This document shows, piece by piece, positions 2,717 through 60,386 of a stretch of DNA of 64,000 nucleotides (position 1 is its first letter; every line of letters starts with the position of its first letter). The notes beneath the pieces were generated by a model, which worked only from the letters and a program-made list of their open reading frames with translations, did not search any database and had not been told where the DNA came from. Source of the DNA: a plasmid. Location: sequence record NZ_MK262712.1, one strand, 5' to 3'. A program made the translations under genes and the position numbers.

Positions 2717-3007
2717 TTACGCAGTTTATTTAGAAATTGGCGAAAGCCGTCGTTTATCACCCTGAAGCAACAAACCGCCTGAGTTTATACTTTTCTGGCA
2801 TTAGAAAGTCCGTAGAAAGTTACTTTTTGAAAGCAATTTAACTACGAGTTGTGGTAAGACAGATGTGAGTTATCGCACCAGCGCCATTCTTTTGGAAAGA
2901 GGCTCTGGTGTCGAAACTCAAAATTGAGCTACCCATTTATGGATATCTTAGAAGGTATAAAGGTATTAAAAGTAAAACTATTGAGAAATTTATACATCAA
3001 CCCTGTA

Positions 3008-4831
3008 TCATTGTAAACACATATCTTCACTTCCCTCAATAATTGGTATTTCTTCAGCTAACTCAACTACTTTCGGGAACGACTCAGTGATAAACTCTGA
3101 CGGTTTCCCATGCCAGGTAATGTAAAGCTCAAGCTCTGCCCTTGTCATCCCAACAAAAAATAAACGACGCTCCTCTTCTATCCCTTCATCACCGATAACC
3201 TTCGGTGAGGGTATTTGGTCGTGGTTGCAGTTGATGATTAGTACTTTTTTCCATTCCAGTCCTTTGGAACCATGGAGCGTGCAGAGACAGATTCCACTTT
3301 GCTCTGTTTCACTAGATTCCACTTTGTTACCCATGGTCATGCCAGCTGCAATATTTAGCATCTTAAGCCATCCATCTTTCATTGCCCAACGGTAGCATGA
3401 CATTAAAGAAATCCGGGTTACTGACGAATCACCTTTCGTATTGGACATCTTGTATCCGGCCATTTCTAACCATTCTTTAATTTTTTTAAAACGGTTTTCA
3501 ATTTCTTCTTTGACTCGTGTATCAGTCATCATCGGTGCCATGTGCTTGTGTAGGGTTTTGGTAAGGACTGATGCATCAGGAGGTAAATCAGTTTGTTGAA
3601 AAGTAACTTTTTTGGAACTCATATGCTTCCACACTGTGTCCAAAACTTGTTCATCCTCATTGAGGAAAGATAGAACTCGTTTCATCAGACCGATGTTACC
3701 TGGCTGTCGGAAAAAGGAGAACAGATGGAGAATGTTACTTGGCTCTAATCCCTCCCAGAAGGATTTTCCCCCTATCCTCGTAACCGGAACTTCAAGATAA
3801 CTTTCCATTTTGTCGAGTGTCGTGTTGTTTCGGCTTAAAATCGCCCAATCATGAGGGTTTTTCTCCACCAGCTCCTTGATCACATCAAATTGGTCGTCTG
3901 CCTTATCCGATCTTATAAAAGTTACTTTTCCTTTATCCCCATTTCTGCCTGACACGAGACTCTTTTCATAGCGGGCTTTGTTCTTTCTGATCACTGTATC
4001 AGCAAATTTAAGGATCAATGGTGCACACCTGAAACATTTGGTCAGGTGAAAAACGTTAGGATTATATGCTTTATCAAACTGACGAAAGATCTTAACTCCA
4101 CCTGCATCTCTGAAACTGTATATTGTCTGGTCATCATCGCCTACGATTGTGGTGTTGATGCCCCTCTTTGCGTGCTCAGATATCCAAGTGAATTGAATAC
4201 CATCGGTGTCCTGTACTTCATCAACAATCAGATGAGTAATACTTAAAGGCCTCATCTTATCGGCACTCAACATGCCCACTACATACTTTGAAAGTGAGTT
4301 AAAATCTGCAACATTATCCTTTTTGCAAAAGCTCATGTACTCGTTGTAGAACGCCACCTGGTCGCGTGTATATTTAATCCTGATAATGTCCGGGTTAAGC
4401 TCCCGGCCAATGCCGTCGATGAATGGCATTATGTCGTTCACACTTTCATGGTAGTTAAGATGTTTTTGTACCCGTGATACCATCGCCATTTGTTTGTGTC
4501 CGATTAGAAGCCCTCCTTTCCAACCGGTCTGGTTTACCATTTTTTTTATAAAACCGTGAAAGGTATCGACCTCTATACGGTTGAGAAACCTCGGCTCTAT
4601 CATTTTCTGGAGGCTATTTTTTAAAGAGTCTGTGGCCGCACGGGTAAAGGTTACCAGGGATACCCGGGCCAATGGATGACGTTGAAAAATGGCTTTTGTT
4701 CCCTCCTTCATGGTGAAGGATTTGCCACTCCCTGGACAGGCAATGACCATCGTGTTTTTATCCATATTTTGTATAACACGCTCTTGTTCTTCTGTACTCG
4801 ATGACATCTTAGCTCCTTCCTGTTCCGGCAT
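3008..4831 (-). CDS. UvrD/Rep-family superfamily-1 DNA helicase
   Basis: N-terminal UvrD signature (EEQERVIQN...MVIACPGSGKSFTM, Walker A), DExx box (LIVDEVQDTD), and characteristic later helicase motifs (VGDDDQTIYSFRDAGG ... LCTLHGSKGLEWKKV ... FVGMTRA). Confidence 0.8.
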   Translation of the reverse strand: MPEQEGAKMSSSTEEQERVIQNMDKNTMVIACPGSGKSFTMKEGTKAIFQRHPLARVSLVTFTRAATDSLKNSLQKMIEPRFLNRIEVDTFHGFIKKMVNQTGWKGGLLIGHKQMAMVSRVQKHLNYHESVNDIMPFIDGIGRELNPDIIRIKYTRDQVAFYNEYMSFCKKDNVADFNSLSKYVVGMLSADKMRPLSITHLIVDEVQDTDGIQFTWISEHAKRGINTTIVGDDDQTIYSFRDAGGVKIFRQFDKAYNPNVFHLTKCFRCAPLILKFADTVIRKNKARYEKSLVSGRNGDKGKVTFIRSDKADDQFDVIKELVEKNPHDWAILSRNNTTLDKMESYLEVPVTRIGGKSFWEGLEPSNILHLFSFFRQPGNIGLMKRVLSFLNEDEQVLDTVWKHMSSKKVTFQQTDLPPDASVLTKTLHKHMAPMMTDTRVKEEIENRFKKIKEWLEMAGYKMSNTKGDSSVTRISLMSCYRWAMKDGWLKMLNIAAGMTMGNKVESSETEQSGICLCTLHGSKGLEWKKVLIINCNHDQIPSPKVIGDEGIEEERRLFFVGMTRAELELYITWHGKPSEFITESFPKVVELAEEIPIIEGSEDMCLQ

Positions 4832-5097
4832 AAATCATGTCACATTCAGGAAAGAATTTTCTGAAATAGAGGCTGTTTTTCGTTTTATCTTCAGTATTTT
4901 GTATCATTGACTGCTCCCCGCCCAGAATGTACTGCACCTTTACTCAGTTGGAGTTCAACTTTTGGGATGCAGTTCAAAACAGGGCGAGGATTCCAACCCG
5001 CACGGGACGAGATTTCTAGGGAACTTAACTGATAAAAGCACCTTTAAAAGCACTCTTAAGCGTGCTATAATTGAGACTCTGAACAGGAGGTTTTTTT

Positions 5098-5346
5098 ATG
5101 GCATTTCAGGTACTAACCACTACTGCAGCAAGCATCACAGAGCTTAAACGTGATCCTATGGGCACTTTCAATGCAGGAGAAGGTGCCCCTGTAGCCATAC
5201 TGAATCGCAACGAACCCGCTTTTTACTGTGTACCGCCTGCTCTGTATGCTCAACTGATGGAGCTTCTTGAAGATCAGGAGCTGGGTCGTATTGCTGATGA
5301 GCGAATTGGTGAGGCGGTAATCGAGGTCAGTCTAGATGACTTATAA
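5098..5346 (+). CDS. Type II antitoxin, Phd/YefM-RelB (StbD-like) family
   Basis: 82 aa. The conserved Phd/YefM core (ITELKRDPMGT...APVAILNRNEPAFYCVPPALYAQLMELLED) overlaps the downstream toxin gene by 11 nt. Confidence 0.75.
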   Translation: MAFQVLTTTAASITELKRDPMGTFNAGEGAPVAILNRNEPAFYCVPPALYAQLMELLEDQELGRIADERIGEAVIEVSLDDL

Positions 5347-5620
5347 GCTGGCCTTTAATGAATCAGCTCTGAAAGAATGGAAAAAATTGGGCCATACCAT
5401 TCGGGAACAATTCAAAAAGAAGCTCGCTGAGCGCCTGTTGAACCCACGGGTGCCCGCATCGCAACTACATGGACGCAAAGACCAATACAAAATAAAGCTC
5501 CGTGGCGCAGGCTACCGACTGGTTTACAGTGTCAACGATGATGTTGTGACGGTCACCGTAATTGGCGTCGGTAAACGTGAGAATGATGATATTTACAATT
5601 TAACCAAACACAGAAATTAA
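5336..5620 (+). CDS. Type II toxin, RelE/ParE (StbE-like) family
   Basis: 94 aa. Typical RelE/ParE features (LAFNESALKEWKKL ... YKIKLRGAGYRLVYSVNDDVVTVTVIGVGKREN), translationally coupled to the upstream antitoxin. Confidence 0.75.
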   Translation: MTYKLAFNESALKEWKKLGHTIREQFKKKLAERLLNPRVPASQLHGRKDQYKIKLRGAGYRLVYSVNDDVVTVTVIGVGKRENDDIYNLTKHRN

Positions 5621-5639
5621 GAGCCCATTCGTTCAGGTA

Positions 5640-7048
5640 TTTAGTCACAAAAACAATCTTTACATGTAATAAATAGTCGGAATACCGACTTCTGTTTATT
5701 TCCTGCACCTGTTGACTCCGTGATATATATATGGTTATTTATACAGGTTGTCTCAATACACTCTGAATGCAAAATGCTAATCCAGAAAGCGTATAAATAC
5801 AGACTCAACCCGACAGATGCACAGGCGCAACGACTGCGTCAGATGTGCGGCTGCGCCCGTTTTGTCTGGAATTACGCCCTGGCAGAGACGCAGCGTATTC
5901 TTGAGGCCGGACAAAAACTCCCTTCCGCCTTTGAGCTGAATAAAATGCTGACAGGATGGAAGAAATTACCTGACCTGGCGTTTTTATCTGATGCCTACAC
6001 CGACAACCTTCAGCAGAAACTGAAAGACCTGCACGGGGCATGGATACGGTGCTTTGATAAAAAACTGGCAGCGAAAGCGCCCGTGTTCAAACGTAAAACC
6101 CACGGCAATGATTCCGTTCGTTTCGTCAATTTTGACAAATACTGCCAGCTTGAGTACAGACGCGTTAAGTTACCCTCGGGGCTGGGCTGGGTGACATTCC
6201 GGCAGTCCCGGGCCGTTGTGGGTAAAATCAAAAACGCAACGGTCAGCCAGCACGCTGGCGGCTGGTATATCTCGTTTCAGGTAGAAATGGAGGTCGAACA
6301 GCCCGCGCACCCGTCAACGTCTGCTGTCGGCCTGGATGCCGGTATCTGCAAGCTGGTAACGCTGTCAGACGGCACGGTGTTTGAACCTGTCAACAGTTTT
6401 AAACAGAACCAAAGCAGACTGGCAAGGTTACAGCGCCAGCTTGCCCGTAAAGTGAAATTCAGCGCAAACTGGAAGAAGCAGAAAGCAAAAATTTCCCGCT
6501 TACACGCGCATATCACCAATATCCGCCGCGATTACCTTCATAAAGTCACGACAACAATCAGCAAAAACCACGCGATGATCGTTATTGAAGATTTGAAGGT
6601 TTCCAACATGGCGAAATCGGCAGCGGGTACGGCAGACGAGCCGGGGCGCAACGTTACGGCAAAATCAGGTCTTAACCGGGCGATACTGGATCAGGGCTGG
6701 TACGAAATGCGCCGCCAGCTCGAATATAAGCAGCGATGGCGCGGCGGTGAGGTGCTGGCAGTAAATCCGGCCTACACCAGCCAGAAATGCGCCTGCTGTG
6801 GTCATACCTCGAAGGAAAACCGTCAATCGCAGGCCACATTTGTCTGCGTGGCGTGTGGATACGAAGCGAATGCTGATGTAAACGGCGCTTGTAATATTTT
6901 AGCGGCAGGACATGCCGTACTTGCCTGTGGAGGGACGGTGCAGTCAGTCCGCCCGATGAAGCAGGAACCTGGCACTGAGCGATCAGTCGTCACCCACTAA
7001 TGGGAATCCCCCTCCTGAATCGCGCAGCGTGAAGGTGGGGAGGATGTC
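5640..7048 (+). mobile_element. Partial IS200/IS605-family element: tnpB with only a tnpA 5' remnant (solo-tnpB copy)
   Basis: Bases 5640-5773 are about 90% identical to 7909-8037 of the full copy, including the first codons of tnpA. tnpA is otherwise missing. The subterminal hairpin right end gggaatccccctcctga...gtgaaggtggggagga is shared with copy 2. Confidence 0.7.
5774..7000 (+). CDS. tnpB: IS200/IS605-family TnpB (OrfB) RuvC-like nuclease, copy 1
   Basis: [17 protein letters not shown]...; C-terminal zinc finger CACCGH...[18 protein letters not shown]. Nearly identical to copy 2 except for the last ~25 codons. Confidence 0.85.
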
Positions 7049-7053
7049 AAATT

Positions 7054-7116
7054 CCGTATAACACGTTCTTGTTCTTCAGTACTTGATTACATCTTAATTC
7101 CCTTATGTTCCTGCAT
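7054..7116 (-). pseudogene. Duplicated 5' fragment (about 20 codons plus promoter) of the UvrD-like helicase gene, truncated at the IS end
   Basis: 7054-7175 is about 75% identical to 4790-4900 (the helicase start and upstream region). The minus-strand reading MQEHKGIK*SSTEEQERVIRN matches helicase MPEQEGAKMSSSTEEQERVIQN but carries an in-frame stop. Confidence 0.45.
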
Positions 7117-7270
7117 AAATCATTTCACATTCAGGAATTATTTTTGGAAATATAGGCTTTTTAGTTTTTTTCATGATTTTTTCCTCGTCACCGGTAGCTC
7201 AAGTTAACAGCCTCCCCCTCTCTGAAGAAGGGCGAGGATTACCACTTCAACGCAACCTACCTAAACCACA

Positions 7271-7480
7271 TTAAGCGGCTTTAGGGTTTACAGTCGCTCC
7301 GTGGGCTAATGTGATCAGCCCGACCGCTTTTATATTCTTCGCCGCATTTACGTCACTATCATGGTTAGCCCCACATTCAGGGCAAATCCATGACCTGACG
7401 TTAAGCGCCATTTTTGTCATGGTATAGACGCAACCGCTATAGCGTTTTGAGGACGGGAAAAACTGGTCAATGGCGACCAC
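7271..7480 (-). pseudogene. C-terminal fragment of a different IS200/IS605-family tnpB
   Basis: 69-aa ORF ends with the TnpB zinc finger CPECGANHDSDVNAAKNI and has no N-terminal RuvC part. A hairpin-rich end follows at 7185-7270. Confidence 0.55.
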
Positions 7481-7573
7481 GGATCGCCCCGACCATCTTT
7501 TGTCTCAAAGGGTACTCCCACCGTGGCAGGCGGGAGGGGAATTTGAATTGACGCGCTAGCGTTAAAGGAACAT

Positions 7574-7972
7574 TTAGCCGCGCTGGTGCTGAATGTAGCG
7601 CTTTACGACTTCCAGCGGTGCTCCACCACATGACCCAACAAAGTAGCTGCGTGACCAGAGAACAGGCTTATTGTACGCCTCCCGCAAATCCAGAAATTCA
7701 TTCCGTAGCCGCCGACTTGTGACGGCTTTCAGGCTGTTAACCAGTTTTGACAGTTGCACAGTTGGTGGGTATTCGACCAGCATGTGAACATGATCGGCTT
7801 CTCCGTCACATTCTTTCAGTACAGCACCGAAATCACCGCAAACTTCACCTGCATACTGATTTACTTTTTCCAGATGTAACTCACCGAAAACTTTACGGCG
7901 GTACTTAGTCACAAAAACAATGTGAACATGTAATAAATAGGCAGAATGACGACTTCTGTTTATTTCCTGCAC
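7574..7972 (-). CDS. tnpA: IS200-type Y1 HuH transposase TnpA
   Basis: 132 aa with HuH motif HVHMLV and the conserved SRSYFVGSCGG tail. Confidence 0.85.
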   Translation of the reverse strand: MQEINRSRHSAYLLHVHIVFVTKYRRKVFGELHLEKVNQYAGEVCGDFGAVLKECDGEADHVHMLVEYPPTVQLSKLVNSLKAVTSRRLRNEFLDLREAYNKPVLWSRSYFVGSCGGAPLEVVKRYIQHQRG

Positions 7973-8037
7973 CTGTTGACTCCGTGATGTACATATGGTT
8001 ATTTATACAGGTTATCTCAATACACACTGAATGCAAA

Positions 8038-9225
8038 ATGCTAATCCAGAAAGCGTATAAATACAGACTCAATCCGACAGATGCACAGGCGCAACGACTG
8101 CGTCAGATGTGCGGCTGCGCCCGTTTTGTCTGGAATTACGCCCTGGCAGAGACGCAGCGTATTCTTGAGGCCGGACAAAAACTCCCTTCCGCCTTTGAGC
8201 TGAATAAAATGCTGACAGGATGGAAGAAATTACCTGACCTGGCGTTTTTATCTGATGCCTACACCGACAACCTTCAGCAGAAACTGAAAGACCTGCACGG
8301 GGCATGGATACGGTGCTTTGATAAAAAACTGGCAGCGAAAGCGCCCGTGTTCAAACGTAAAACCCACGGCAATGATTCCGTTCGTTTCGTCAATTTTGAC
8401 AAATACTGCCAGCTTGAGTACAGACGCGTTAAGTTACCCTCGGGGCTGGGCTGGGTGACATTCCGGCAGTCCCGGGCCGTTGTGGGTAAAATCAAAAACG
8501 CAACGGTCAGCCAGCACGCTGGCGGCTGGTATATCTCGTTTCAGGTAGAAATGGAGGTCGAACAGCCCGCGCACCCGTCAACGTCTGCTGTCGGCCTGGA
8601 TGCCGGTATCTGCAAGCTGGTAACGCTGTCAGACGGCACGGTGTTTGAACCTGTCAACAGTTTTAAACAGAACCAAAGCAGACTGGCAAGGTTACAGCGC
8701 CAGCTTGCCCGTAAAGTGAAATTCAGTGCGAACTGGAAGAAGCAGAAAGCAAGAATTTCCCGCTTACATTCGCATATCGCCAACATCCGCCGCGATTACC
8801 TTCACAAAGTCACGACAACAATCAGCAAAAACCACGCGATGATCGTTATTGAAGATTTGAAGGTTTCCAACATGTCGAAATCGGCAGCGGGTACGGTAGA
8901 CGAGCCGGGGCGCAACGTTGCGGCAAAATCAGGTCTTAACCGGGCGATACTGGATCAGGGCTGGTACGAAATGCGCCGCCAGCTCGAATATAAGCAGCGA
9001 TGGCGCGGCGGTGAGGTGCTGGCAGTAAATCCGGCATATACCAGCCAGAAATGCGCGCGTTGCGGTCATACAGTAAAGGAAAATCGTCAATCGCAGGCAG
9101 TATTTGTCTGCGTGGCGTGTGGATACGAAGCGAACGCCGACATAAACGGCGCTCAAAATATTCTCGCGGCAGGACATGCCGTGTTGTCCGGGATTAACCC
9201 CGGACGCGCCCGTAAGGCGGCGTAA
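8038..9225 (+). CDS. tnpB: IS200/IS605-family TnpB (OrfB), copy 2
   Basis: Same as copy 1. Zinc finger CARCGH...[18 protein letters not shown]. Confidence 0.85.
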   Translation: MLIQKAYKYRLNPTDAQAQRLRQMCGCARFVWNYALAETQRILEAGQKLPSAFELNKMLTGWKKLPDLAFLSDAYTDNLQQKLKDLHGAWIRCFDKKLAAKAPVFKRKTHGNDSVRFVNFDKYCQLEYRRVKLPSGLGWVTFRQSRAVVGKIKNATVSQHAGGWYISFQVEMEVEQPAHPSTSAVGLDAGICKLVTLSDGTVFEPVNSFKQNQSRLARLQRQLARKVKFSANWKKQKARISRLHSHIANIRRDYLHKVTTTISKNHAMIVIEDLKVSNMSKSAAGTVDEPGRNVAAKSGLNRAILDQGWYEMRRQLEYKQRWRGGEVLAVNPAYTSQKCARCGHTVKENRQSQAVFVCVACGYEANADINGAQNILAAGHAVLSGINPGRARKAA

Positions 9226-9326
9226 GCCGTTAAGCGAGGAACCGGGCAATGCGGTAACGCGTTGCTACCCTACAAAGGGAATCCCCTTCCTGATTCACGT
9301 AGTGAGAAGGTGGGGGAGGATGTCAA

Positions 9327-10420
9327 GTAGCTGAACATTTCCAGGAACGATATTGCAGCGCCTGAGATGTTCAGCCAGAGTTGCCCTTGACTGACCATGG
9401 CGTTGGTTCGTTTCATGCTCGCTTCGAAGAGTTGGTAATCTGCGGCGATACCCAACGACTTGCGATACTGCAGCACACCTTTATCTATTTGGTTGAGGAC
9501 AAAAGCCCCTGTGGTGATATCGTGAGCCTGACCAGCGCTTCCAAAAAGCGAAGACGCCACACCTTGCAGAAAGTCACTTTTTTGTCCTGACTCTTCTTTA
9601 GCCGATTCAACAAACTGATTCATCTGCCCTATACGTTTCATGATAGATACGCCCAGGCGTCGGAACAGGATGCATACTGCAGTCCGGTGGATGTCACCAT
9701 GTGGACGCTGGCCGTCTTCAGGCTGTTTGTCGTCATTGAATCCATCACCGTTTCTATTGAACCAAGATCAGTGACATAGATTTCATTTAACGCCACCCCT
9801 CTTAGTGGGGTCTGAACCTCTGAGTCCTGGGTCGTTTTAATACAATCGCGTGCAATAGACTGGATGATTCTGCAGACATCAAAGGCGACAGGTTTTTCAC
9901 TCCCGCTCATCGTATTCGGGAAAGCCTGACAGAACCCACTGGATTCCCCGCCCCACTCCATATATTTGACCATTTTTGTCATTGGCCCCAGCGTCAGGCT
10001 GTCATCGAGCGTGTCAGTGACCTGCCCCACCGGCGTAAGCGGGTCAAACGCTGCTCGCCAGTCCGTAATTAGCCCGTGAAGTAATCCGGTTGTCAGTTAA
10101 CCGGTTGACGCGATAAATAACGGTACATTGTCTATGTTCCTGACCTCCCCTGTTTTAACCGATTCCAGAGTGACATCGGCTTTAATGACGGGAATTGAAT
10201 AGAACAGCAACCCCATTATCCAGCAGAAGATCGGGACTTCGTTTTTTGTGGGGGCAAGGACCCACCGCAGGGATTTATAAAAAAGTCCAATTGCTGCTGC
10301 ATATTCAGCAAATCTGAGCCATTCATTGGATCCGTGAGTGGAAATAATCAGCGCGATCCCGTAAAAGCCGTATAAACAAAATCGATATCACTAATGGTAT
10401 ATATAGTAAAGTTGCTCATT
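9327..10420 (-). pseudogene. traG/trhG-like (F-type mating-pair-stabilisation protein) N-terminal fragment, frameshifted and truncated by the IS
   Basis: Minus-strand reading MSNFTIYTISDIDF then shifts frame to ...GIALIISTHGSNEWLRFAEYAAAIGLFYKSLRWVLAP...VKTGEVRNIDNVPLFIASTG*. This resembles the F TraG N-domain (...VKVHRVDNVPVGLA...). It continues in ORFs 9638..10030 and 9270..9641. The last 19 codons are read from the IS right end. Confidence 0.4.
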
Positions 10421-10925
10421 TACCCCCCTACACTGTATTGAGGGTAGCTGACCTCTATTAGATACGTTGAATCTATGCCGAAAACGACGTCTCATGTTGA
10501 GTTTGAAAGTTGCATTAAATCGACTCCTGACAGTACTACTGGGAAAAGTAACTCTTCTAAAAAAGTTACTTTTTGGTAGTTTCTCCTCGAAGGTTTCGAG
10601 GCATGGTGTAAAGCACTTATGCCTCCTGGTAGAAGGTTCACTTTTTTCTCGCCATACAAACAATTAACAACGCTGAGTATCTTTCTATGTCTTATCATCT
10701 TTTCAGCCCATTGGTGCAATCTATATATTTTCACATAGTTGAATTTTATTTCTTCCAAATAAGGGTAGGGAAAATCGAAAAAGTTGATTTTTTTTTGGAC
10801 AGGTATATTTTCAACTTTAACGCCTGTTTTTGAGTTTGGTTACTCAGATGTCCAACCGAAAAATAGTATCTTGCACGTGCATAATTTTATGAAATAATGA
10901 TGGAAACAACCACTGGGGCATTTCA

Positions 10926-11794: not shown

Positions 11795-11826
11795 GAAAGG
11801 CCGGGTCTCCGGCCTCCTACTTTTAA
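11795..11826. terminator. Rho-independent terminator between convergent genes
   Basis: Hairpin AGGCCGG-gtct-CCGGCCT followed by CTACTTTT. Confidence 0.5.
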
Positions 11827-22303: not shown

Positions 22304-22430
22304 GGAACGCTCTGATCGTAGTTATGCCATAGTTACATCTAATGTATCCTATGAACAGAGCGTATTTTTCCCATTAAGGGAAGTATCTTCATTGAAATTC
22401 CCGTAAAACGGGAATGGCTGGACAGAAAAG

Positions 22431-39147: not shown

Positions 39148-39274
39148 ACAACCAGTAAAAGTAACTTTCATAAAAAATTTACCAAACTGGCTTTTTTGAC
39201 CACATAGCGAGAAACTTTTACAAAATAATACTGTACAGTCTAATTTCAGGAATGGTTCAGTCATAGGTAAGAAA

Positions 39275-41339: not shown

Positions 41340-41498
41340 ACCTCCGAGTTAAAATGTCACTATCAAAAGATGGTGACATTTCTTTCTTTTGCTCTCTTAT
41401 GTCGGAAACCCAAAAATTTCACATGATACTATTCTCGTATAGACCTATGAGTGTCTTTGAAAAGTAACTTTCGTGGCTTCTCACATAAAAGGTTTCCT

Positions 41499-48131: not shown

Positions 48132-49141
48132 TGAGTGATGTTGAACGCGGTACAAGCAAAGACAAATACTTAACCGGAAACAGCAAACGTACATTTGTCG
48201 ATCAAAAAAGCGGACTTCCACCTTTACGTACTTCTCCTACACAGAAGCGACTATTTACTCTAGCAAATGGGCGTAAAGTTGAAGCTCGCTACGTTGTCGT
48301 CCCTGGCTCAGAAGTTGCTAATAAAACGCTCGTTCATGAACTAAACCCACGAAATCAAGAGGCAGTTGACGATCTCTCTACAAGAGAAATTCTTCCTTTA
48401 ATTAAAGAGAATGGGGTTACAACTGAAGCTATTGCCGTCTACCGGGACGGCCAATTTTACCTAATTGAAGGAAGTAGGCGTCGTTTCTGCTGCATAAAAT
48501 GTTCGGTTGATTTACCTTTATGGGCCTTCGATGTAGAGGTTAGCCGTGAAGATGTCGATTGTATTGTTAATGCTGCACAAACGGCAAAACGATTCTCGTA
48601 TCGTGAAGTTGGAATTAAATACCTTGAAATCATGAAGAATAAGGGTTTTAAAACTAATGAGGAACTTGCTTCTTATCTTAATATTGGTATTGAATCGATA
48701 AGAAAGAGAATTCAGGCTGCAAAAATCAGTAAAGAACTTATTAGAATATTCCCAGATAGTGAGGGGATACCTAATACTTATTATAGTAAATTGGCTAGAA
48801 TTGAAAAAACCGCTAATGCTAATAACATTCCTCTGACAGAGCTAACATCTGAAGTAGGGGCGGATGACAATAAAATTACTAACATTAATGATATTGAGGA
48901 AGTTCAGAAGTCAATTTTAGATGGTTTACATTCAGTTCTTAGTATTCTTTGTAATGATGTAAATAAACCGCAAAACTGGACAGTGACTGATATTGCTGCT
49001 TTTGATAATAAGGATACTTACGCTAGGGTAAAAAGAAGCGCCGATGGCCAGAAAGTAAGCTTTGAATTTAAGCGTATTGGTCAATCAACAATAAATGAGA
49101 TTGAACGCTTAATTAAAGTTAGTATTAGCAAAGCAAAATAA
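48131..49141 (+). CDS. parB: Partition protein ParB/SopB-like
   Basis: ATGA-coupled to parA. ParB N-domain motif YLIEGSRRRF, 336 aa. Confidence 0.7.
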   Translation: MSDVERGTSKDKYLTGNSKRTFVDQKSGLPPLRTSPTQKRLFTLANGRKVEARYVVVPGSEVANKTLVHELNPRNQEAVDDLSTREILPLIKENGVTTEAIAVYRDGQFYLIEGSRRRFCCIKCSVDLPLWAFDVEVSREDVDCIVNAAQTAKRFSYREVGIKYLEIMKNKGFKTNEELASYLNIGIESIRKRIQAAKISKELIRIFPDSEGIPNTYYSKLARIEKTANANNIPLTELTSEVGADDNKITNINDIEEVQKSILDGLHSVLSILCNDVNKPQNWTVTDIAAFDNKDTYARVKRSADGQKVSFEFKRIGQSTINEIERLIKVSISKAK

Positions 49142-49325
49142 TTATTTTATTTTTAGTCATGATTCTTTAACAGGGATCATGACTTTCTCATTTATGCAAC
49201 TCACATGTACGACTTTGACACTGGAGGTTCTAACAGCTTTCTGTTCCACTCTTGGCAGAGAAGAATCCCTTTGCTCAAGTCCATCTCTTGGTGCTCCGGC
49301 AGCTTTCAGAAGCATCGTTGACAAA

Positions 49326-49480
49326 AACAACCCCATTGTTCGCAGTCGGATACCTGAAGCCACCGCAGACTCATGATGTACTGCAGGTGAAAACAACCCC
49401 GTTGTTCGCAGTCGGATACCAGAAGCCACGGCAGACTGATTCTGTGCAGCAGATGAATACAACCCCATTGTTCGCAGTCT
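49326..49480. repeat. Mini-array of about 2.5 units of the same 66-bp repeat, downstream of parB
   Basis: TTGTTCGCAGTC cores at 49335, 49401 and 49467 (66-bp spacing), same AACAACCCC-GTTGTT feature. Confidence 0.75.
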
Positions 49481-49862
49481 GTTTCTTGTTGCTCTTGAAA
49501 CCTTCTGGTGCACCGTTATGATTATACAACCAGCCTAACTAGTTAGGGCTGCGCCCAGCCTACTCACGAATAACCCTGACAATGTACCGTCCTAAAGAAC
49601 TCTATAACCCTTATACTGGGGGAGGGGGCAACACCAACTAACGGGTCTGATCATGTCGAAATTCGACTCTGATCATTTCTGGAAAATTTCCAGCAAAGCT
49701 GGTATCTATTGCCCTGATGTGAAAATTAACCTATCTGGTGGGTAGTTAGAAAGTTACTTTTTATTGTTACTTTCTATAGTTAGACGATGAATCTATGCCT
49801 AACGTCCCTAATCAGTATGAACCTGATCAGGGCACATTTTTTGATTAATGCATGTTACTTGG

Positions 49863-52268: not shown

Positions 52269-52406
52269 ATCAAATTATTAATCCAAAAAATTCGTGAAGT
52301 TTATGCCTTGGAGAAAGTTACTTTTTTCTGATTGCATGCTTTTAACAACACCATTTGGTACGAAACGCCACCAGCCCCACATAGCAGAGGCGGTGGCCGT
52401 CGATAG

Positions 52407-54812
52407 TTAGTTAAGTTGTGGGAACTCGATGATGAAGTTGCTTTGACCCGTAGACCCGTTGATAGCCGGAAAAATCGGAACCGTAGAGTTTTCACCAGTT
52501 CCGAGGTCAAGCTGTATTTCTTTAGTTTCCCCGGGATGGATCACCGTTCCCAGAATGTTGATGGCATACTCAGCGTCGCTTCTGACCGTGATATTTGCCG
52601 TCTGCATACCCTGGGCAAGAGAGCCATCGTTCCTTCTCAACTGGCCGGTACGCATGACTGCCAGAGGTGTGTTGTCACTGGTTTTGAGTGCTTTAACCAC
52701 GCCCAGTGTTTTCAGTTTCTCCAGGGTAACGAGATTTTTAGGGAAGTAGGCGAACTGAATACTTTTTTGGGACGTATTACCTTTAGCATCTGTGGCATAT
52801 GCAGTGAGAGTGTATTTATCTGTCGACGTATCCAGAGTAGGAAACAGCCGTGGGTAATCAGGTGTGTAGCTACCATCAACATTCTGGTTGAAACCAAGGA
52901 CTACGCTATCAGATGCAGGCCCCCCTCGTAGTTCCAGGCGGAGAAGAGTAGGTTTAGTCAGCTCATCGTTTAGTTTAATGGATATATTCTCCAGACCATA
53001 GACCGTGTTGCCGGAGGTGAGCGGGGCATTGTCGTAGTTAAAGCTGATCTCAGGGGGAGTCATATCATGCACTAACGTGATGAATGGAGAAGATGTTTCA
53101 TTTTCGAAGGTATCTTTTGCCAGAAAGTTTAAGTCGTATCTTCCTTCAGCCAACTTACTTAAGTCAAACGCATAAGTATAATCTTCACCAGAAAGCGCTA
53201 TTTTGGCTCCATTCAGCACCTGCATACCTGAATTAGCATCAATCAGTTCAGCGGACTTAAGCTGAAGTTGATCTCTGAAGGTACCATTACCGGGTTGGGT
53301 AACAAATAAAAGTACTTTTTTCTTATCTTCCTGATAGTCATATCCCTTTATCCTCGGTAGAAGGTTTGTGTTCCAGTAGTTCCTCCTTTCCTGATTAATT
53401 GATGAAAGTGTCTTGTCCTCATTATACATTTTAAAAGAATATGTCACGCCTCCATTGCCACTTTTAGCAATTGACCACGGTACCGGCCCGCTGCACTCAG
53501 TCTCACCTGGTTGGATTTGACAGATTTCCAGGTTACCTGTAAATGCTCTCTGGATATAATTTCTCGCAGAAGCACGGATCCTCGCTGAAATAAATTTCAC
53601 CGGTAGATCACTTGTTTTCCATAAATAGTTAAAAGAATTAATTTCACCTTTTGTGTCCGTCGTGAGCCAAACGCTACTAAGCATTTCCGGTCCGACAGGC
53701 GTGTCGGGACCCAGTTTAAGGTTATAGTTTGCAGTAGCGCCGCCCCATTGGTACCCGTTATGTATATCGTACCTGTTGTTATATGCTGTTGTTGCCGCCA
53801 CATAGGCGTAACCGTTAGCTTCTGAAATGATAGAGCCAAAACTTAAACCAGCTTTGTTGTATTTCCTTACATTGTTGATGGGGATACGATAGATTAAGGT
53901 AATCGGGTTTTGATTAACTGTCATACCCGCTTTATAAGCTATATAACCCGAAGTGAACCCTGGAACAACGCTTGTTTGCGCTTCGGGGTCCCGTATAGCA
54001 ATAAGAGTGTATTCACCCAGTTGGTCATCAAATACAAATTTCTGTTCCGGTAATACTTTTCGGGAGCCTGCTTTGTCAAAGAGTGTAACCCGGAAACGAT
54101 ACTCTACATCAGCATTTGATGAAGGCATCCAGGAGGCCTTTTTCCGGTTCCCTAAAGTCCATGCAGCAGACAGGGAGGAAGACCCGCTATCATAGTCCAT
54201 AGCAGTAATGGAATAGACGCTATTATCGGGATTAATAACCTGTAATGTAGCTTTATCGAAACCAGCGACTGCTTTAACGTTGTTAACGTTCACATATAGT
54301 TTTTGGTCGGCTCCAAGGCCCAGTTCCCACCTTTCTCCCTGGGTGACCATTTCATACCCCGGTTTCTGTAAAATGCTCAAATCGTCCGCTGTAGGGCCCA
54401 CACTATCTATGGTGAAATCCTGTGTGGTGGAGTCGACCATAGCACCCTGTGTGTTAAGTATTTCAGAGATAACCTGATACGGTCCATCACTCAGGGGAGG
54501 AAGCGTGATGATTTTCCCGTAGAACTCTTCACCTGTTGATGCCTTAATTCGATCACTTACCTTAATGCTATCGGTTGTCGTGCTGTAAACCTCCGTTCCT
54601 GACTTCCGGACAGATACGTGTACTTTGCGATCTAGGCCGGAAATCAGGCTCAACTGAATTTTTTCGTTAGTGTTAAGAATGCCGGTTTCCGCACTGACTG
54701 ATTTCTCCGCACCGTAGATATCCTTAATGGTGTACTCATAGACCCGTGAATGCGATGAAAAGGACATCGTCGCGAGGATTATCGTTGTCAGCAGTTTTAT
54801 CTTGGTATTCAT
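52407..54812 (-). CDS. Exported 801-aa surface protein, paralogue C
   Basis: Signal peptide ...SFSSHS|RVYEY. C-terminus IIEFPQLN. Palindrome at 54849 in the 5' UTR. Confidence 0.7.
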   Translation of the reverse strand: MNTKIKLLTTIILATMSFSSHSRVYEYTIKDIYGAEKSVSAETGILNTNEKIQLSLISGLDRKVHVSVRKSGTEVYSTTTDSIKVSDRIKASTGEEFYGKIITLPPLSDGPYQVISEILNTQGAMVDSTTQDFTIDSVGPTADDLSILQKPGYEMVTQGERWELGLGADQKLYVNVNNVKAVAGFDKATLQVINPDNSVYSITAMDYDSGSSSLSAAWTLGNRKKASWMPSSNADVEYRFRVTLFDKAGSRKVLPEQKFVFDDQLGEYTLIAIRDPEAQTSVVPGFTSGYIAYKAGMTVNQNPITLIYRIPINNVRKYNKAGLSFGSIISEANGYAYVAATTAYNNRYDIHNGYQWGGATANYNLKLGPDTPVGPEMLSSVWLTTDTKGEINSFNYLWKTSDLPVKFISARIRASARNYIQRAFTGNLEICQIQPGETECSGPVPWSIAKSGNGGVTYSFKMYNEDKTLSSINQERRNYWNTNLLPRIKGYDYQEDKKKVLLFVTQPGNGTFRDQLQLKSAELIDANSGMQVLNGAKIALSGEDYTYAFDLSKLAEGRYDLNFLAKDTFENETSSPFITLVHDMTPPEISFNYDNAPLTSGNTVYGLENISIKLNDELTKPTLLRLELRGGPASDSVVLGFNQNVDGSYTPDYPRLFPTLDTSTDKYTLTAYATDAKGNTSQKSIQFAYFPKNLVTLEKLKTLGVVKALKTSDNTPLAVMRTGQLRRNDGSLAQGMQTANITVRSDAEYAINILGTVIHPGETKEIQLDLGTGENSTVPIFPAINGSTGQSNFIIEFPQLN

Positions 54813-54947
54813 TTCAGATCATTCCCAGCAGGCTTGTAATCAGAGTTGAGAAAGTAACTTTTCTCTCTTCCTGGCCGTCATATTCGGCGTTGTCGTGTTT
54901 ATCCAAAAATTACCGGCCCAACAGCAGGGACCCGTAATCGTGAGTCG

Positions 54948-57353
54948 CTATTTAATTTGCGGAAACTCAATGATGAAATCGCTTTGCCCGGTAGCGCCGT
55001 TTGTTGCCGGGAAAATTGGGACCGTTGTGTTAACACCAGCGCCGAGGTCTATCTGGATGTCTTTGGTTTCGCCCGGCTGAATGACAGTACCCAGTATGTT
55101 GATCGCATAATTAGCGTCAGTCCTGAGCGTGATGTTGGCAGTTTGTACACCCTGAACCAAGGAGCCATCGTTCCGCCTAAACTGCCCGGTACGCATGACG
55201 GCCAGCGGAGTGTTGTCGCTGGTTTTCAGCGCCTTCACCACACCCAGCGTTTTGAGTTTTTCCAGGGTCACAAGATTTTTCGGATAATAGGCGAACTGAA
55301 TGCTTTTCTGAGTGGAGTTCCCTTTGGTATCCGTTGCATACGCCGTCAGGGTATATTTATCGGTATTTTCGACAAGGGTAGGGAACAGACGTGGATAATC
55401 TGGCGTATAGGAGCCATCGGCATTCTGGTTGAAACCAAGAATCACGCTATCAGATGCGGGGCCACCTTTCAGCTCAAGGCGTTCGAGAACAGGCTTTGTC
55501 AGCGCGTCATTCAGGCTAATCGCGATGTTCTCCAGCCCATACACGGTAGAACCGGAAGCAAGCGGGGCATTTTCATAATTAAATATGACGTCTGGGGGGG
55601 TCATATCGTTCACCAGCGTGATGAACGGCGATGACGATTCATTATCGAAGGTGTCTTTGGCAAGGAAGGAAAGGTTATATTTGCCTTCCGGGAGAGCTCC
55701 CAAATCAAACGTGTAGGTGTAATCATCACCAGCAATCGCTGTATTGGTACCGGTTAACACCTGGACATTTGAATCCGCATTAATTAGAACCGCAGACTTG
55801 AGCTGCAATTTGTACCGTAAACTGCCGTTCCCCGGTAGATTCACAAATAGCAGAACCTTTTTCTTGTCTTCCTGATAATCATAACCAGTAATTCTGGGCA
55901 ACTGGTCAGCATTCCAGTATTGCCGCCTTTCAGCATATTGTGAGAAAAGGGTGCCATCTGAGTTGGTCATCTTGAAGAAAAAACCCATATGGCCGTTACC
56001 ACTTTTTTGAATATTCCCAACAATTTTCCCTTCACACTCCAGCTCGCCGACAGGAATGTTACATAAGAAACCTCCGGTATTAGACATAGCCTTTTGAATG
56101 TAATTTCGTGCCGACGCTTTCACGCGGGCAGTAAGAAATGTCACCGGGAGATCGGATGTTTTCCAGAGGAAATCATATGAGCTTACCGAGCTTTTCTTGT
56201 CCGAGGTAATCCACACGTCAGGAGTAGTCGGGCTTACCGGCGCATCTGCACCCATTTTAATATTGTAGGTTACACTGGCCCCCCCCCACTGATAACCGTT
56301 ATGGATAACAGAGAGCGTCTGGTAAGGGGTCGTGACCGACACATAGCTGTAGCCGTTAGCCTCAGAAATTATGTTCCCGAAGGCCAGCCCACCTTTTCTG
56401 TACTCCCTGCGGTTCGTAGAAGGGACACGGTAGACAAAAGTAATGGGATTCAGATTGACCGTCATCCCCGATTTATATTCAACATACCCTTTACTGAATC
56501 CGGGTATAACACTGGTTTCAGCTGTAGGGTCATACACCGCGACTAGCGTGTATTCGCCTAAATCCGAGTCAAAGAGGAACTTCTGATCCGGCAGGACTTT
56601 TCGGGTACCTGCCTTGTCGTATAGCGTGACACGAAAGCGATATTCTGTATCCGCATTGGACACCGGCATCCAGTCGGCTTTAACCGCGCTCCCCTTAGTC
56701 CACGGAACAGAAAGCGATGCAGAACCGCTGTCGTAAACCATGTCCATTTTGGAATAGACGGTATTATCGGGATTTAAGATCTGGATAGTAGCTTTATCAA
56801 AACCGGCCGTCGCTTTCACATTTTTGACGGTGACATATAGTTTTGCTTCTGCCCCCAACCCCAGTTCCCAGAGATTTCCGGTAAGCACCATGTCATATCC
56901 CGGACGCTGGTCAATCCTCATGTTATCGGCTGTGGGGCCAGACGTATCAATCAGGAATGATTGAGTTGTCGAATCAATAAGGGCATCCTGGGTATTCAAT
57001 ATTTCCGAGGTAATGGTATACAGCCCTTCACTTAACGGTGGCATGGTTATAACTTTCCCGTAAAACTCTTCATCTGATGATGATTTGATGCGATCGGCAA
57101 CTTTCACGCTTTCTGTCGTCGTGCTGTAGACATTCGCGTCGCCTTTTTTCACCGTCACACGGATTTTCCTGTCCAGCCCTGAAATCAGGCTAAGCTGGAT
57201 TTTCTCCGTGGTGTTCAGCTTCGCTGAATCGGCGCTAACGGATTTCTCCACACCGTAGATATCTTTTATTGTGTACTCATAAACACGGGAATGGCCCGGC
57301 AATGAAAGGGTGCCGAGGATTAATGCCGCCAGAAGTTTGAGTTTGAATTTCAT
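54948..57353 (-). CDS. Exported 801-aa surface protein, paralogue D
   Basis: Signal peptide ...SLPGHS|RVYEY. C-terminus IIEFPQIK. Palindrome at 57431 upstream. Confidence 0.7.
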   Translation of the reverse strand: MKFKLKLLAALILGTLSLPGHSRVYEYTIKDIYGVEKSVSADSAKLNTTEKIQLSLISGLDRKIRVTVKKGDANVYSTTTESVKVADRIKSSSDEEFYGKVITMPPLSEGLYTITSEILNTQDALIDSTTQSFLIDTSGPTADNMRIDQRPGYDMVLTGNLWELGLGAEAKLYVTVKNVKATAGFDKATIQILNPDNTVYSKMDMVYDSGSASLSVPWTKGSAVKADWMPVSNADTEYRFRVTLYDKAGTRKVLPDQKFLFDSDLGEYTLVAVYDPTAETSVIPGFSKGYVEYKSGMTVNLNPITFVYRVPSTNRREYRKGGLAFGNIISEANGYSYVSVTTPYQTLSVIHNGYQWGGASVTYNIKMGADAPVSPTTPDVWITSDKKSSVSSYDFLWKTSDLPVTFLTARVKASARNYIQKAMSNTGGFLCNIPVGELECEGKIVGNIQKSGNGHMGFFFKMTNSDGTLFSQYAERRQYWNADQLPRITGYDYQEDKKKVLLFVNLPGNGSLRYKLQLKSAVLINADSNVQVLTGTNTAIAGDDYTYTFDLGALPEGKYNLSFLAKDTFDNESSSPFITLVNDMTPPDVIFNYENAPLASGSTVYGLENIAISLNDALTKPVLERLELKGGPASDSVILGFNQNADGSYTPDYPRLFPTLVENTDKYTLTAYATDTKGNSTQKSIQFAYYPKNLVTLEKLKTLGVVKALKTSDNTPLAVMRTGQFRRNDGSLVQGVQTANITLRTDANYAINILGTVIQPGETKDIQIDLGAGVNTTVPIFPATNGATGQSDFIIEFPQIK

Positions 57354-57499
57354 ATCAGTACCAGTCTAAATCATGGTTAAAAGGTCGCATTGTGAGTCGC
57401 TCTTAACCACTGACGGAGCGATACATGCCAAAAAAGTTACTTTCCTTCTCCGTTGCAAAAACAACGCATGTTTATGATTCTGCTCACCTGGCCTACGGC

Positions 57500-58177
57500 T
57501 TATTTCACCTGCTCGAGAACAGCACGCCTGCTCTTCTGGGCTGGCGAATGTAATGAGCGATTCCAGACCAGCGTTTTTTCGTAAATCGTGATGAAACCAA
57601 GACGAATTAGCTCCTGCTTAATCCGCTCGTTCAGCAATGAGCAGGATTTTTGCCCTGTCACATTTGAAAGGTAATTTTGTAAGCCCATTGGCGTGGCCGG
57701 GAGCGATTTAGGGGAGGATGCGCAGGAAAGCTTCAGTCTGTTAATCCAGTACCCCATGTCATGCTCTTTGGCTTTCATCACTTTCTTTGTTGAAGCCGTG
57801 TCTTTAACCGGCTGCGGAGCGGGCAGGGCTGGAGAGAACCTTGTACAGCTGATCCCTGCTGCTTTAAGACGGGCAATAATGCCGTCATAGCCCTTGTCAC
57901 GGGAGATAACAGAGAAGTGTGACGTATCCCCGGACAATGCGGTCAGCTGGCCGAGTTCCAGAACCAGATGGAAATCAACATTGTTTTTGGATACCTCAGT
58001 CGCCGGAATAATGCATACAGAAATTGCAGAGCTCAGGGACGTAACGGGAATTTTAATGTTTTCCTGTTTAGCGCCCGTGAAGAAAAGCACTTTGTCAAAG
58101 TCATGAAGGGAAACCCCCTCAAGGCTTCCGATATTTTCATAATCAATCAGGGCAATTCTGGTTTTGGAACTGAGCAT
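57500..58177 (-). CDS. NYN/PIN-like (LabA-like) nuclease-domain protein, 225 aa
   Basis: N-terminal RIALIDYENIGS...VLFFTGAKQ pattern typical of NYN/LabA PIN-like domains. Basic C-terminal half. Confidence 0.4.
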   Translation of the reverse strand: MLSSKTRIALIDYENIGSLEGVSLHDFDKVLFFTGAKQENIKIPVTSLSSAISVCIIPATEVSKNNVDFHLVLELGQLTALSGDTSHFSVISRDKGYDGIIARLKAAGISCTRFSPALPAPQPVKDTASTKKVMKAKEHDMGYWINRLKLSCASSPKSLPATPMGLQNYLSNVTGQKSCSLLNERIKQELIRLGFITIYEKTLVWNRSLHSPAQKSRRAVLEQVK

Positions 58178-58306
58178 TATTCTCTCCCGAAAAATAGGTT
58201 GGACTAAATATCAACTTAATCACCACCAGCAGCCCAAAAGTAACTTTTGGGCCTATGTACACTCCCGCCACCCGGTAAAAGTGACTTTTTACGGCGCACA
58301 TACTGA

Positions 58307-58726: not shown

Positions 58727-59271
58727 AGTTCCGTTTTCCGTATGAACAGACCTAACGCCAATAATCCAGTTATATCAAAATTTGTTTCAGAAATTCCTGA
58801 ATAACAGGACAAAAAAAATCCAGAGAGGAAAGAAATGCGGGACAAAAAGGGTCTTTCAGGATCGCTTATTTTGATATCGTCAATTAACTATTCCATCCCG
58901 AGATGTTCAAATGACGCCAGTATGCAGCGCGGGAAATGTCAAAACAGAATGTGCAGAAAGAAGAAAACGACATAGAAGGAGAGGGAGGCTCATTCACATC
59001 ACTGATGACAGCTATATTAACAGCAGAATGCTTGATCAGATATCCGACGACGTGATGTATCAGGAAGCATTCAGAAAAGGAACTTAACGACGAACGTAAA
59101 AAAACACACTCCACGGCCTTAAAGTACCTTTAAGTCGGGAAAAACCAAAATTTTCTATGTTAGATTATTATCTGTTTTAGTAGGCCAGAACTAAACCAGT
59201 GCCCTGTCTGGTAAAAGGGAGTGGCGGTAGCTTCTGAAAATTCAGTTTAACTTCCAGGTTATTCAAGCGGG

Positions 59272-59631
59272 ATGTATATGCATGCAACTCATCTGACGAA
59301 AAAATTTAATGTTTTGGCGGTCGTCTATTTCACAATCATTGCTTGTGGTCAGATTGTTCTGTTCCCACATTCTCAGCCCATTTTCCTGTTCCTCGTGACT
59401 ATGGCTATGGCGGTTCGCTTATTTACCCTGCGGCCTCAATATAAAAATTTACGATTTCTGGTTTTGTCCATCATCTCACACCACCTTGTTTTTACCATTC
59501 TTTCACTCATCCAACTCTATATCAATGCAAGGTATAGCAATGCCAGTTTCATTGAGTATCAGATGGTTTACGCGCCTTTGCTCATCGGGATGGGATATGT
59601 GTATTTCAACGTCTGGAGAGCGCGTACCTAA
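59272..59631 (+). CDS. Small multi-TM membrane protein
   Basis: Three hydrophobic helices. Confidence 0.3.
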   Translation: MYMHATHLTKKFNVLAVVYFTIIACGQIVLFPHSQPIFLFLVTMAMAVRLFTLRPQYKNLRFLVLSIISHHLVFTILSLIQLYINARYSNASFIEYQMVYAPLLIGMGYVYFNVWRART

Positions 59632-59822
59632 CATCCTTCCGACTTCTTTGGTAAAAAGAGCCTGCATGAATCGTTCTACCCACAAAGCCATACCGCTGAC
59701 CTTTTCTTGTGAAGTGGCAACAGGTACAGGTGTCCCCGTTAAGGGGTCAGACTGTTGTACGTTACCGGGTTAATAACGAGTATCGGGAATTGACCAGCGA
59801 TACTCATTAGATAGGATTAAAC

Positions 59823-60287
59823 ATGTTGATTAACAATAAAGTTAAAAAAGAAATAAAGGCAAAAAGAAAGAAGGCGTCCAATATATTTTGGACGTGCCAT
59901 TACATCGAAAAGAAATATCTAGAACCTATTGTACTAGCCCTACTCTGGTTATCTGGGATACCATTGCTGGCATATCTTAAGCTATCCCCGCAATGTTCAC
60001 CTTTGACTGCATTGCTGATATACGGATTTGGGATTATTACAGTACTTTCTGTATGGTTCTATTTGGATCTTCCTAAAAGCTGGATTGATTTACTTGACCG
60101 TCAAATTTTGAAGTACCGATCAGATACATCATTCATTGATGTACTCAAAAATGTGCACACTGAAGACTTTATTGACCATGGCAAGATAATAGTACCAATT
60201 CTCGACATTAAATATTGGGCTGTTAGCCAAGAATGCCAACTGAATAGACTGCTTAGGAAAGAAAATAGCGTCAAAATCAAAAAATAG
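59823..60287 (+). CDS. Membrane protein, 154 aa
   Basis: Two or three TM helices after a basic N-terminus. Confidence 0.35.
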   Translation: MLINNKVKKEIKAKRKKASNIFWTCHYIEKKYLEPIVLALLWLSGIPLLAYLKLSPQCSPLTALLIYGFGIITVLSVWFYLDLPKSWIDLLDRQILKYRSDTSFIDVLKNVHTEDFIDHGKIIVPILDIKYWAVSQECQLNRLLRKENSVKIKK

Positions 60288-60386
60288 GTAGTTGTTAACC
60301 TTAAAAGTTTTGAAAGTAAAAAGGATTGATGTCCATTCATTAATTTTCAATTATCAAATTGCAGAAAGTTACTTTCTGGGGGATCT

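Follow-up and report, generated by a model that had tools for sequence, protein, structure and literature searches.

A 13-bp palindrome dispersed over the backbone of IncH plasmids as a putative plasmid-wide regulatory network

The KorB operators (OB, TTTAGCSGCTAAA) are present in 12 copies on the IncP-1 plasmids RK2 and R751. Each is a 13-bp perfect 6-1-6 palindrome with variable centre, and they are placed near promoters, distant from promoters and inside genes of plasmids whose ParB-family protein combines an N-terminal ParB domain with a helix-turn-helix (HTH). AcaCD of IncC plasmids and SetCD of the SXT/R391 elements use GC-rich, oriented boxes of 19-28 bp, situated just upstream of the -35 element (class II) in roughly 10-20 copies. 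Noc with its NBS sites and MatP with matS organise or position chromosomes through dozens of 13-16-bp palindromes over one replicon, each read by one dimeric protein and showing no promoter bias. Here, a dispersed palindrome, AAAGTNACTTT, is described from a 64,000-nucleotide stretch of plasmid record NZ_MK262712.1 (the window, analysed over its full 64 kb) and from related plasmids of the IncH family. It shares with the KorB operators the size and 6-1-6 symmetry, the variable centre, the mixed placement of the copies and the presence of a plasmid gene for a ParB-family protein, while it differs in sequence and is 4-7 times more numerous, with 46-84 copies per plasmid or about one per 2-4 kb. 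The candidate protein differs from KorB in being an orphan without paired ParA, as the ParAB system of the plasmid stands apart from it and possesses a centromere array of its own, and in an arginine patch that reads GNCRTRA. With AcaCD and SetCD the IncH plasmids have in common a related lineage (MOBH relaxase, MPF_F transfer system), one short box at many backbone promoters, an FlhC-like subunit (TrhY) and, in R27, a plasmid-wide regulon. In contrast to those boxes, the palindrome is AT-rich, symmetric, 13-15 bp long, about 40% intragenic and missing at the F-operon promoter. It resembles the Noc and MatP sites in number, size and probable use of one dimeric reader, and differs in lying on a plasmid with a 2-3-fold promoter and intergenic enrichment. 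It is best classed with the operator networks of plasmid global regulons, for which KorB/OB and the boxes of AcaCD and SetCD are examples, and is unusually large among them.

The palindrome was found 33 times in the window against an expectation of 0.13, as calculated from 100 dinucleotide-preserving shuffles with a maximum of 2. This bears out the enrichment claimed in an earlier note on the same DNA. All 31 positions listed there are within 10 bp of a real site, and two sites, at 14564 and 35572, had been missed. Thirty-one of the 33 sites match RAAAGTNACTTTY, and the logo of the aligned sites reads R-AAAGT-N-ACTTT-Y, which corresponds to 13 bp in a 6-1-6 arrangement. On the left side, 24 sites have A and 7 have G as the outer base; on the right side, 23 have T and 10 have C. 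Outer A and outer T come together in only 16 sites, fewer than the about 24 copies with full outer arms that the earlier note had counted. The central base is free (A 14, T 13, C 4, G 2). The flanks of the aligned sites showed no conservation past the 13 bp, so the palindrome does not belong to a longer repeat. In the complete 227-kb relative NZ_CP146994.1, which served as the reference plasmid, there are about 390 copies of the half-site pentamer, which is enriched there only as an inverted pair with a 1-bp spacer (84 copies); spacers of 0, 2 and 3 bp and direct or everted arrangements gave 0-1 copies each in the 227 kb. The palindrome is thus a strict inverted 5(6)-1-5(6) dyad. H-NS-family proteins, which had been put forward among the possible readers, would be unlikely to recognise such a strict 10-base dyad. 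One-mismatch copies are present in the window at 10545, 31232, 35127 and 36790, in agreement with four proposed near-matches; a further one proposed at 23878 was not found. Intragenic copies are translated in all three frames (KVTF, KSNF and KLL), as had been observed before from individual copies.

It was considered whether the palindrome could be something other than a protein operator, namely a compositional artefact, a mobile repeat, an RNA hairpin or a target of restriction-modification or methylation. A compositional artefact is ruled out by the shuffles and a long repeat by the unconserved flanks. A dispersed mobile repeat (REP/MITE-like) is also ruled out, as nothing is conserved outside the 13 bp and 42% of the copies are inside genes. 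A hairpin would have a 5-6-bp A/U-rich stem with a 1-3-nt loop and would be unstable, and the copies are found in both orientations to transcription and also outside transcripts. Methylation is conceivable, as the core contains GTNAC, a known type II specificity, with one C per strand. The plasmids also encode a DNA cytosine-5 methyltransferase which is 71% identical between the reference plasmid (173013-174440) and R27 (141140-142567), while the regulators are only about 30% identical. Against this, plasmids usually avoid the targets of restriction-modification, whereas the enrichment here is 100-fold or more, and the methyltransferase is absent from some plasmids that retain the sites. Taken as a whole, a non-operator origin is extremely improbable.

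The window matches, at 99.9-100% identity, Klebsiella IncFIB/IncHI1B (pNDM-MAR-type) plasmids, which carry a MOBH relaxase and an MPF_F transfer system. The reference plasmid possesses 84 sites against 0.6 expected, and these span the Tra1 region, the maintenance and replication regions, Tra2, the immunoglobulin-like (Ig-like) paralogues and a long run of small hypothetical genes. Only four are situated in its 50-kb segment of resistance genes, insertion sequences and integron. The palindrome is a feature of the backbone and not of the transfer region. The operator network proposed in the earlier note is therefore retained as a selected network at the DNA level, but its limitation to transfer and surface-protein genes is not, since the sites cover the whole backbone and the IncH family. 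In an unbiased scan of all 5-N(0-6)-5 palindromes ranked by frequency, the palindrome came first in the window, in the whole plasmid, in two of three diverged relatives and in R27, the IncHI1 prototype, and it came first or second in the third relative and in segments of IncHI1 and IncHI2 plasmids. R27 contains 46 exact sites against 0.43 expected, often with the consensus GAAAAGT-N-ACTTTTC. Eight sites were counted in IncHI2 DNA of 26 kb, and 7-9 in IncHI1 segments of 27-41 kb. The palindrome is kept in IncHI1 and IncHI2 plasmids, including R27, despite a DNA identity of about 65%. It was not found in IncC plasmids, which represent the neighbouring MOBH family. A contig scan for pairs of palindromes 20-50 bp apart returned, among the matches listed, only unrelated repeat arrays from other phyla, many of them CRISPR-like.

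The Klebsiella mosaic plasmid NZ_CP095255.1 has eight sites, all within about 17 kb of IncH-derived DNA, and none in its remaining DNA of about 115 kb (IncFII/IncR backbone, virulence and metabolic loci). This supplies the comparison with unrelated DNA of the same host that the earlier note had called for. It also bears on the possibility that a chromosomal factor of the Enterobacteriaceae binds the site and that IncH plasmids gathered copies to recruit it. Such a factor would fit the ten core bases being invariant across lineages whose regulators are about 30% identical. To our knowledge, there is no enterobacterial regulator with this site; the about 115 kb of other Klebsiella plasmid and chromosome-derived DNA is devoid of sites, and the sites decay in a derivative which lacks the plasmid regulators in the same host, as described below. 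A host factor is consequently regarded as very improbable.

To analyse selection, each site was mapped with 100-bp flanks onto three conjugative relatives, which in their Tra2 regions share about 89, 83 and 76% identity with the window. The 12 non-central positions were identical in 97.2, 95.9 and 95.1% of cases while the flanks were identical in 86.0, 80.0 and 76.3%. The central base and the outer R/Y positions vary freely among the three relatives. Core conservation was seen at intergenic and intragenic sites alike. Positional conservation in related plasmids, for which the earlier note had proposed a test, and selection on the DNA rather than the protein, which it had suggested, are thereby confirmed, with a core 95-97% identical at orthologous positions against flanks of 76-86%. 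In the reference plasmid, 49 of the 84 sites are intergenic, compared with 17.5 +/- 3.7 for random backbone positions, and the other 35 are in coding sequences. Thirty-four fall in the interval from -150 to +30 around a start codon, where 14.7 +/- 3.7 were found at random. Sites are separated from start codons by anything from 16 bp up to more than 250 bp, and no peak of a fixed -10 offset was seen, the -10-like hexamers having no preferred distance from the palindrome. An apparent placement at -65 to -68 of promoters was dropped, as it concerned few and possibly paralogous promoters and showed no -10 peak.

The non-conjugative virulence plasmid pSC7-vir lacks the ParB-like gene, htdA and the C5-methyltransferase, and its trhR and trhY are degenerate. 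Three of its seven diverged orthologous sites are destroyed by single substitutions, compared with 3 of 63 in the conjugative relatives (Fisher p = 0.011, from a small sample). Within the limits of the small sample, decay in this direction is what a function dependent on partners encoded by the plasmid would lead one to expect, and it speaks against a host factor and against a role in structure only. On the basis of the strict dyad geometry, the conservation above the flanks, the promoter and intergenic bias and the decay on regulator loss, the copies are very probably selected protein-binding sites forming a plasmid-wide regulatory network. No description of such a palindrome network was found in the searchable literature.

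The candidate reader is the product of an orphan ParB/Noc-family gene of 392 codons at 39275-40453 (plus strand), the homologue of R27 R0042. The earlier note had called this open reading frame (ORF) ParB/KorB-like. Its product matches TIGR00180 (E = 7e-8), with a borderline match to HTH_ParB, and a profile of six sequences matched Spo0J (3.5e-9), several ParBs and Noc (3e-7), itself a ParB paralogue, in the PDB. By these sequence matches it is assigned to the ParB/Noc family. Orthologues are present in IncHI1 (R27 R0042) and IncHI2, and hence in all three IncH lineages, and R0042 is among the most highly expressed genes of R27 (6132 units). The true ParA/ParB pair is separate from the orphan gene and is located at 46884-49141. 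Upstream of parA, at 44277-46048, a 66-bp unit is repeated 27 times in tandem with AACAACCCCGTTGTT in each unit, and 2.4 further copies are found downstream of parB (49324-49479). This array most likely serves ParAB as its centromere. The dispersed palindrome was also considered as parS of ParAB and rejected, as there are no copies between 41471 and 49750 and the 66-bp array fills this role. In one relative, 49 copies of the array palindrome AACAACCCCGTTGTT were counted.

The orphan ParB-like protein is tentatively favoured as the reader of the palindrome because the 6-1-6 format and the spread of the sites resemble those of the KorB operators. Its family, its separation from ParAB, its presence in all three lineages, the high expression of R0042 and a site 112 bp upstream of its own gene also count in its favour. 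We infer both the identity of the binder and the sign of its action, repression as against activation. The protein would bind the 6-1-6 palindromes as a dimer, as KorB binds its 13-bp OB sites, and would act from promoter-proximal, promoter-distal and intragenic sites. In this way it could coordinate, and most likely damp, nearly all the backbone operons, comprising those for transfer and for Ig-like surface proteins as well as the genes of the leading and replication regions, with the TrhR/TrhY-HtdA switch acting on top of this control. The fuller picture for the IncH megaplasmids (R27, the mcr-1/IncHI2 plasmids and the pNDM-MAR/IncHI1B family), of an unrecognised KorB/Noc-like orphan ParB that loads at 46-84 GAAAAGT-N-ACTTTTC copies as the largest plasmid network of ParB type and acts with the FlhDC-like TrhR/TrhY to switch the whole backbone, is possible but doubtful.

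Several observations weigh against the ParB-like protein as reader. The recognition helix of the HTH differs between the IncHI1B-type protein (SEMAVRQIISL) and the IncHI1/HI2 proteins (SPTTISSLIRL) while the motif is identical in the three lineages; the orthologues are 33-35% identical, and conservation is confined to the next helix (D[VA]ISY). This objection is weakened, though not lifted, by KorB, which recognises its operator by residues that lie outside the HTH. The GERRxRA motif for cytidine triphosphate binding is altered to GNCRTRA or GHCRLKA, in which the G, the A and two of the three arginines are retained. Directly upstream of R27 R0042 there is no exact site, only a one-mismatch copy at 45096. 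An Alicycliphilus plasmid with a distant ParB-like homologue has no dispersed palindrome in 40 kb. Finally, the correlation of the sites with the HtdA regulon, described below, would be explained more directly by an activator. In favour of the ParB-like protein, an IncC plasmid with a distant homologue of it carries, in place of the IncH motif, a dispersed parS-like 18-bp palindrome, ACTTTCACATGTGAAAGT. In this plasmid (NC_021815.1) five copies with TTTCAC half-sites are found at 263, 3847, 4306, 9632 and 12980, all in intergenic gaps, and at least the copy at 3847 is just upstream of a Shine-Dalgarno-like sequence.

In R27, HtdA serves as anti-activator in the TrhR/TrhY-HtdA circuit (Gibert et al. 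2020, PMC7366339). TrhR/TrhY and HtdA control 139 of 181 expressed R27 genes, 106 of them non-tra, and the report describes no binding site or cis element for the circuit (PMC7366339). In the window the htdA homologue is at 23334-23792 (minus strand); its product is 29.5% identical to R27 HtdA, and the orthologue is annotated HtdA in one relative. The circuit offers a serious, though rather unlikely, alternative, which the earlier note had overlooked; its proposal of a plasmid-encoded regulator stands as far as the ParB-like candidate is concerned. According to this alternative the palindrome is the DNA box of the IncH master activator, an FlhDC-like heteromer of TrhR and TrhY that is countered by HtdA, and would correspond in IncH to the boxes of AcaCD and SetCD in the related MOBH elements IncC and SXT/R391. 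The circuit acts plasmid-wide in R27, and the palindrome is the only plasmid-wide enriched motif found in the R27 scan. For 116 R27 genes mapped to the htdA-mutant values of Table S4, the fold change becomes smaller the farther a gene lies from its nearest upstream palindrome (Spearman -0.43, p = 2e-6), with a median of 8-12 within 4 kb of an upstream site and 2.5 beyond, a correlation that is partly confounded by the split between backbone and accessory DNA. The backbone operons parAB, parM and mucAB, which are unresponsive to HtdA, have their nearest upstream site 2-9 kb away, and the sharpest step, from trhI (8.7-fold) to R0002 (61-fold), spans the site that is positionally conserved at window 2816.

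The comparison with AcaCD and SetCD, which bind boxes at many promoters (put at 15-19 bp here and at 19-28 bp above), extends to the proteins. The TrhY subunit is FlhC-like by fold match, which links IncH to these FlhDC-like activators, and remote-homologue sequence searches with TrhR and TrhY gave only IncH proteins, a restriction which is shared by the motif. No paper naming both TrhY and FlhC was found in the searchable literature, and profile searches with TrhY and TrhR against PDB sequences gave no match. The AlphaFold model of TrhR was unusable (predicted local distance difference test score 40), without a PDB sequence match, and TrhR could therefore not be modelled. The alternative is weakened by two TrhR/TrhY-dependent promoters that are without the palindrome. 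The F- and Z-operon promoters are reported to depend on TrhR/TrhY (PMC7366339), but no copy was found at two or fewer mismatches in the F-operon promoter region of R27 and of the IncHI1B-type plasmid or in the Z-operon region of R27. Conversely, the trhRY operon has a site at -81 and yet does not respond to HtdA. About 42% of the sites are intragenic or between convergent genes, and the palindrome has neither orientation nor a fixed offset from -10 or -35, unlike the class II AcaCD and SetCD boxes. TrhR and TrhY are also only 30-35% identical between two lineages. The search for another k-mer common to the F, Z, H and AC promoter regions gave A/T-rich noise only. In the mobI-trhR intergenic region of R27 (about 108436-108576) four copies of AAAGTGACCCT/AGGGTCACTTT were observed, three in one orientation and one inverted. 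These repeats share one half-site of the palindrome and may be related to oriT or the relaxosome.

Another plasmid protein may read the site instead of the orphan ParB-like protein or TrhR/TrhY, such as HtdA as a DNA-binding repressor, R27 R0037 or an unannotated small dimeric regulator. Every lineage has a conserved HtdA, and most of R27 is derepressed when HtdA is lost, but its described action on TrhR/TrhY is one between proteins, and it has no recognisable DNA-binding domain. R0037 is a second ParB-like paralogue which adjoins repHIA in R27, where degenerate motif copies alternate with RepHIA iteron-like repeats in a 43-bp array. Many backbone ORFs are without family assignment, so far leaving room for a small regulator. 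No single candidate stands out among them, and this explanation is judged unlikely. The array is situated in the trhA-repHIA interval of R27 (38370-39010) and consists of about fifteen 43-bp repeats, each with an iteron-like CAAATGCTTTTC and a degenerate palindrome (AAAGGCACTTT or AAAGGCAACTT); these repeats suggest a tie between the palindrome reader and replication control. R0037 itself (40890-41966) is about 28% identical to the window protein, and with it IncHI1 possesses three ParB-family genes.

IncH plasmids carry multidrug resistance of typhoid, mcr-1 and NDM, and their hybrids carry Klebsiella hypervirulence. One circuit runs about three quarters of the genes of R27, and a conserved 13-15-bp box at nearly every backbone operon gives a concrete handle on it. 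The palindrome predicts the positions of chromatin immunoprecipitation peaks, and as a single oligonucleotide (GAAAAGTNACTTTTC, or in the longer bait form GAAAAGTTACTTTTC) it offers a bait for the binder. In mosaics it can also serve as a simple sequence signature for DNA of the IncH backbone. Through the FlhC-like fold of TrhY, IncH regulation is connected to AcaCD of IncC and SetCD of SXT.

The individual sites of the window are distributed as follows. The first (2816-2826) is intergenic, about 100-145 bp upstream of ORF 1688-2716, a homologue of R27 R0002, and downstream of the trhI-like helicase gene; it has a positional counterpart in R27 (2015). Two sites are within the coding sequence of the helicase (3008-4831, minus strand), at 3600-3610, where it is read as KVTF, and at 3918-3928. 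The site 9570-9580 is near the 5' end of ORF 9270-9641 (minus), and 10562-10572 is in the small ORF 10391-10663 with the one-mismatch copy at 10545 lying 17 bp off. Within traN/trhN (11823-15008, minus) the site 14564-14574 is conserved in all three relatives. Codons 3-6 of trhU (15018-16055, minus) contain the site 16037-16047, with an R27 counterpart at 9209, and the start of the TrbC/trhW gene contains 17380-17390.

Two sites, 19095-19105 and 21336-21346, are within the giant Ig-like (rsp-like) gene 18062-22303, which encodes 1413 amino acids. A third, 22427-22437, is about 125 bp upstream of this gene at the stop of the htdK-like ORF, and is mutated from C to T in pSC7-vir. The site 22651-22661 is within the htdK-like ORF. 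R27 HtdK (16077-16640) was assigned to the Whirly family of single-stranded-DNA-binding transcription factors (PF08536, E = 2.5e-5, above the curated cut-off), while the window homologue at 22431-22970 gave no Pfam hit. The divergent intergenic region between htdA and trhO (Z operon) holds 24032-24042, and 24356-24366 is 115 bp upstream of the trhO-like metallophosphoesterase gene (24476). Further sites are found within the DsbC/htdT-like ORF (30897-30907), in the first codons of the htdO-like ORF 33047-33565 (33545-33555) and in the first codons of traE/trhE, 34733-35593 (35572-35582). About 145 bp upstream of the pilin (trhA-like) gene is the site 36523-36533. It is accompanied by a phased cluster upstream of the pilin operon, which starts with 36705-36715 and continues with 36749-36759, the one-mismatch copy AAAGTGACTAT at 36790-36800 and 36854-36864. 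These four copies are spaced by 44, 41 and 64 bp, roughly whole helical turns. The corresponding region of R27 is the one with the about fifteen 43-bp repeats.

On the other side of the pilin region, 37972-37982 is within ORF 37644-38327 (plus) and both 38522-38532 and 38979-38989 are within ORF 38383-39147 (plus). The site 39158-39168 is 112 bp upstream of the orphan ParB-like gene and ends 27 nt upstream of a TTGACC -35-like hexamer. Four Ig-like surface-protein paralogues of about 800 amino acids are located at 41451-43937, 49863-52268, 52407-54812 and 54948-57353, three of them in tandem. The site 41461-41471 is 33 bp upstream of the annotated start of the first paralogue (which ends at 43937). 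The second has one site about 50 bp upstream (52314-52324) and another about 110 bp downstream of its stop (49750-49760). Sites about 44 bp (54851-54861) and about 85 bp (57433-57443) upstream belong to the third and fourth. In all five Ig-like genes, the giant gene included, the palindrome is therefore 33-125 bp upstream of the start. The PIN/NYN gene 57500-58177 has two sites 41 bp apart, about 66 bp (58237-58247) and about 107 bp (58278-58288) upstream, and the last site, 60365-60375, is about 17 bp upstream of the HNH-domain gene 60387-60965. The copies which the earlier note had reported upstream of the four paralogues and of the giant Ig-like, pilin and HNH genes, and in the divergent region of htdA and trhO, are thus all present.

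Relative to the reference plasmid, the window carries an insertion at 5098-9225 with a G+C content of about 0.50 compared with about 0.41 in the backbone. It contains a Phd/ParE-type toxin-antitoxin pair (5098-5620) and two TnpB genes of the IS605 family (5720-7000 and 7984-9225).

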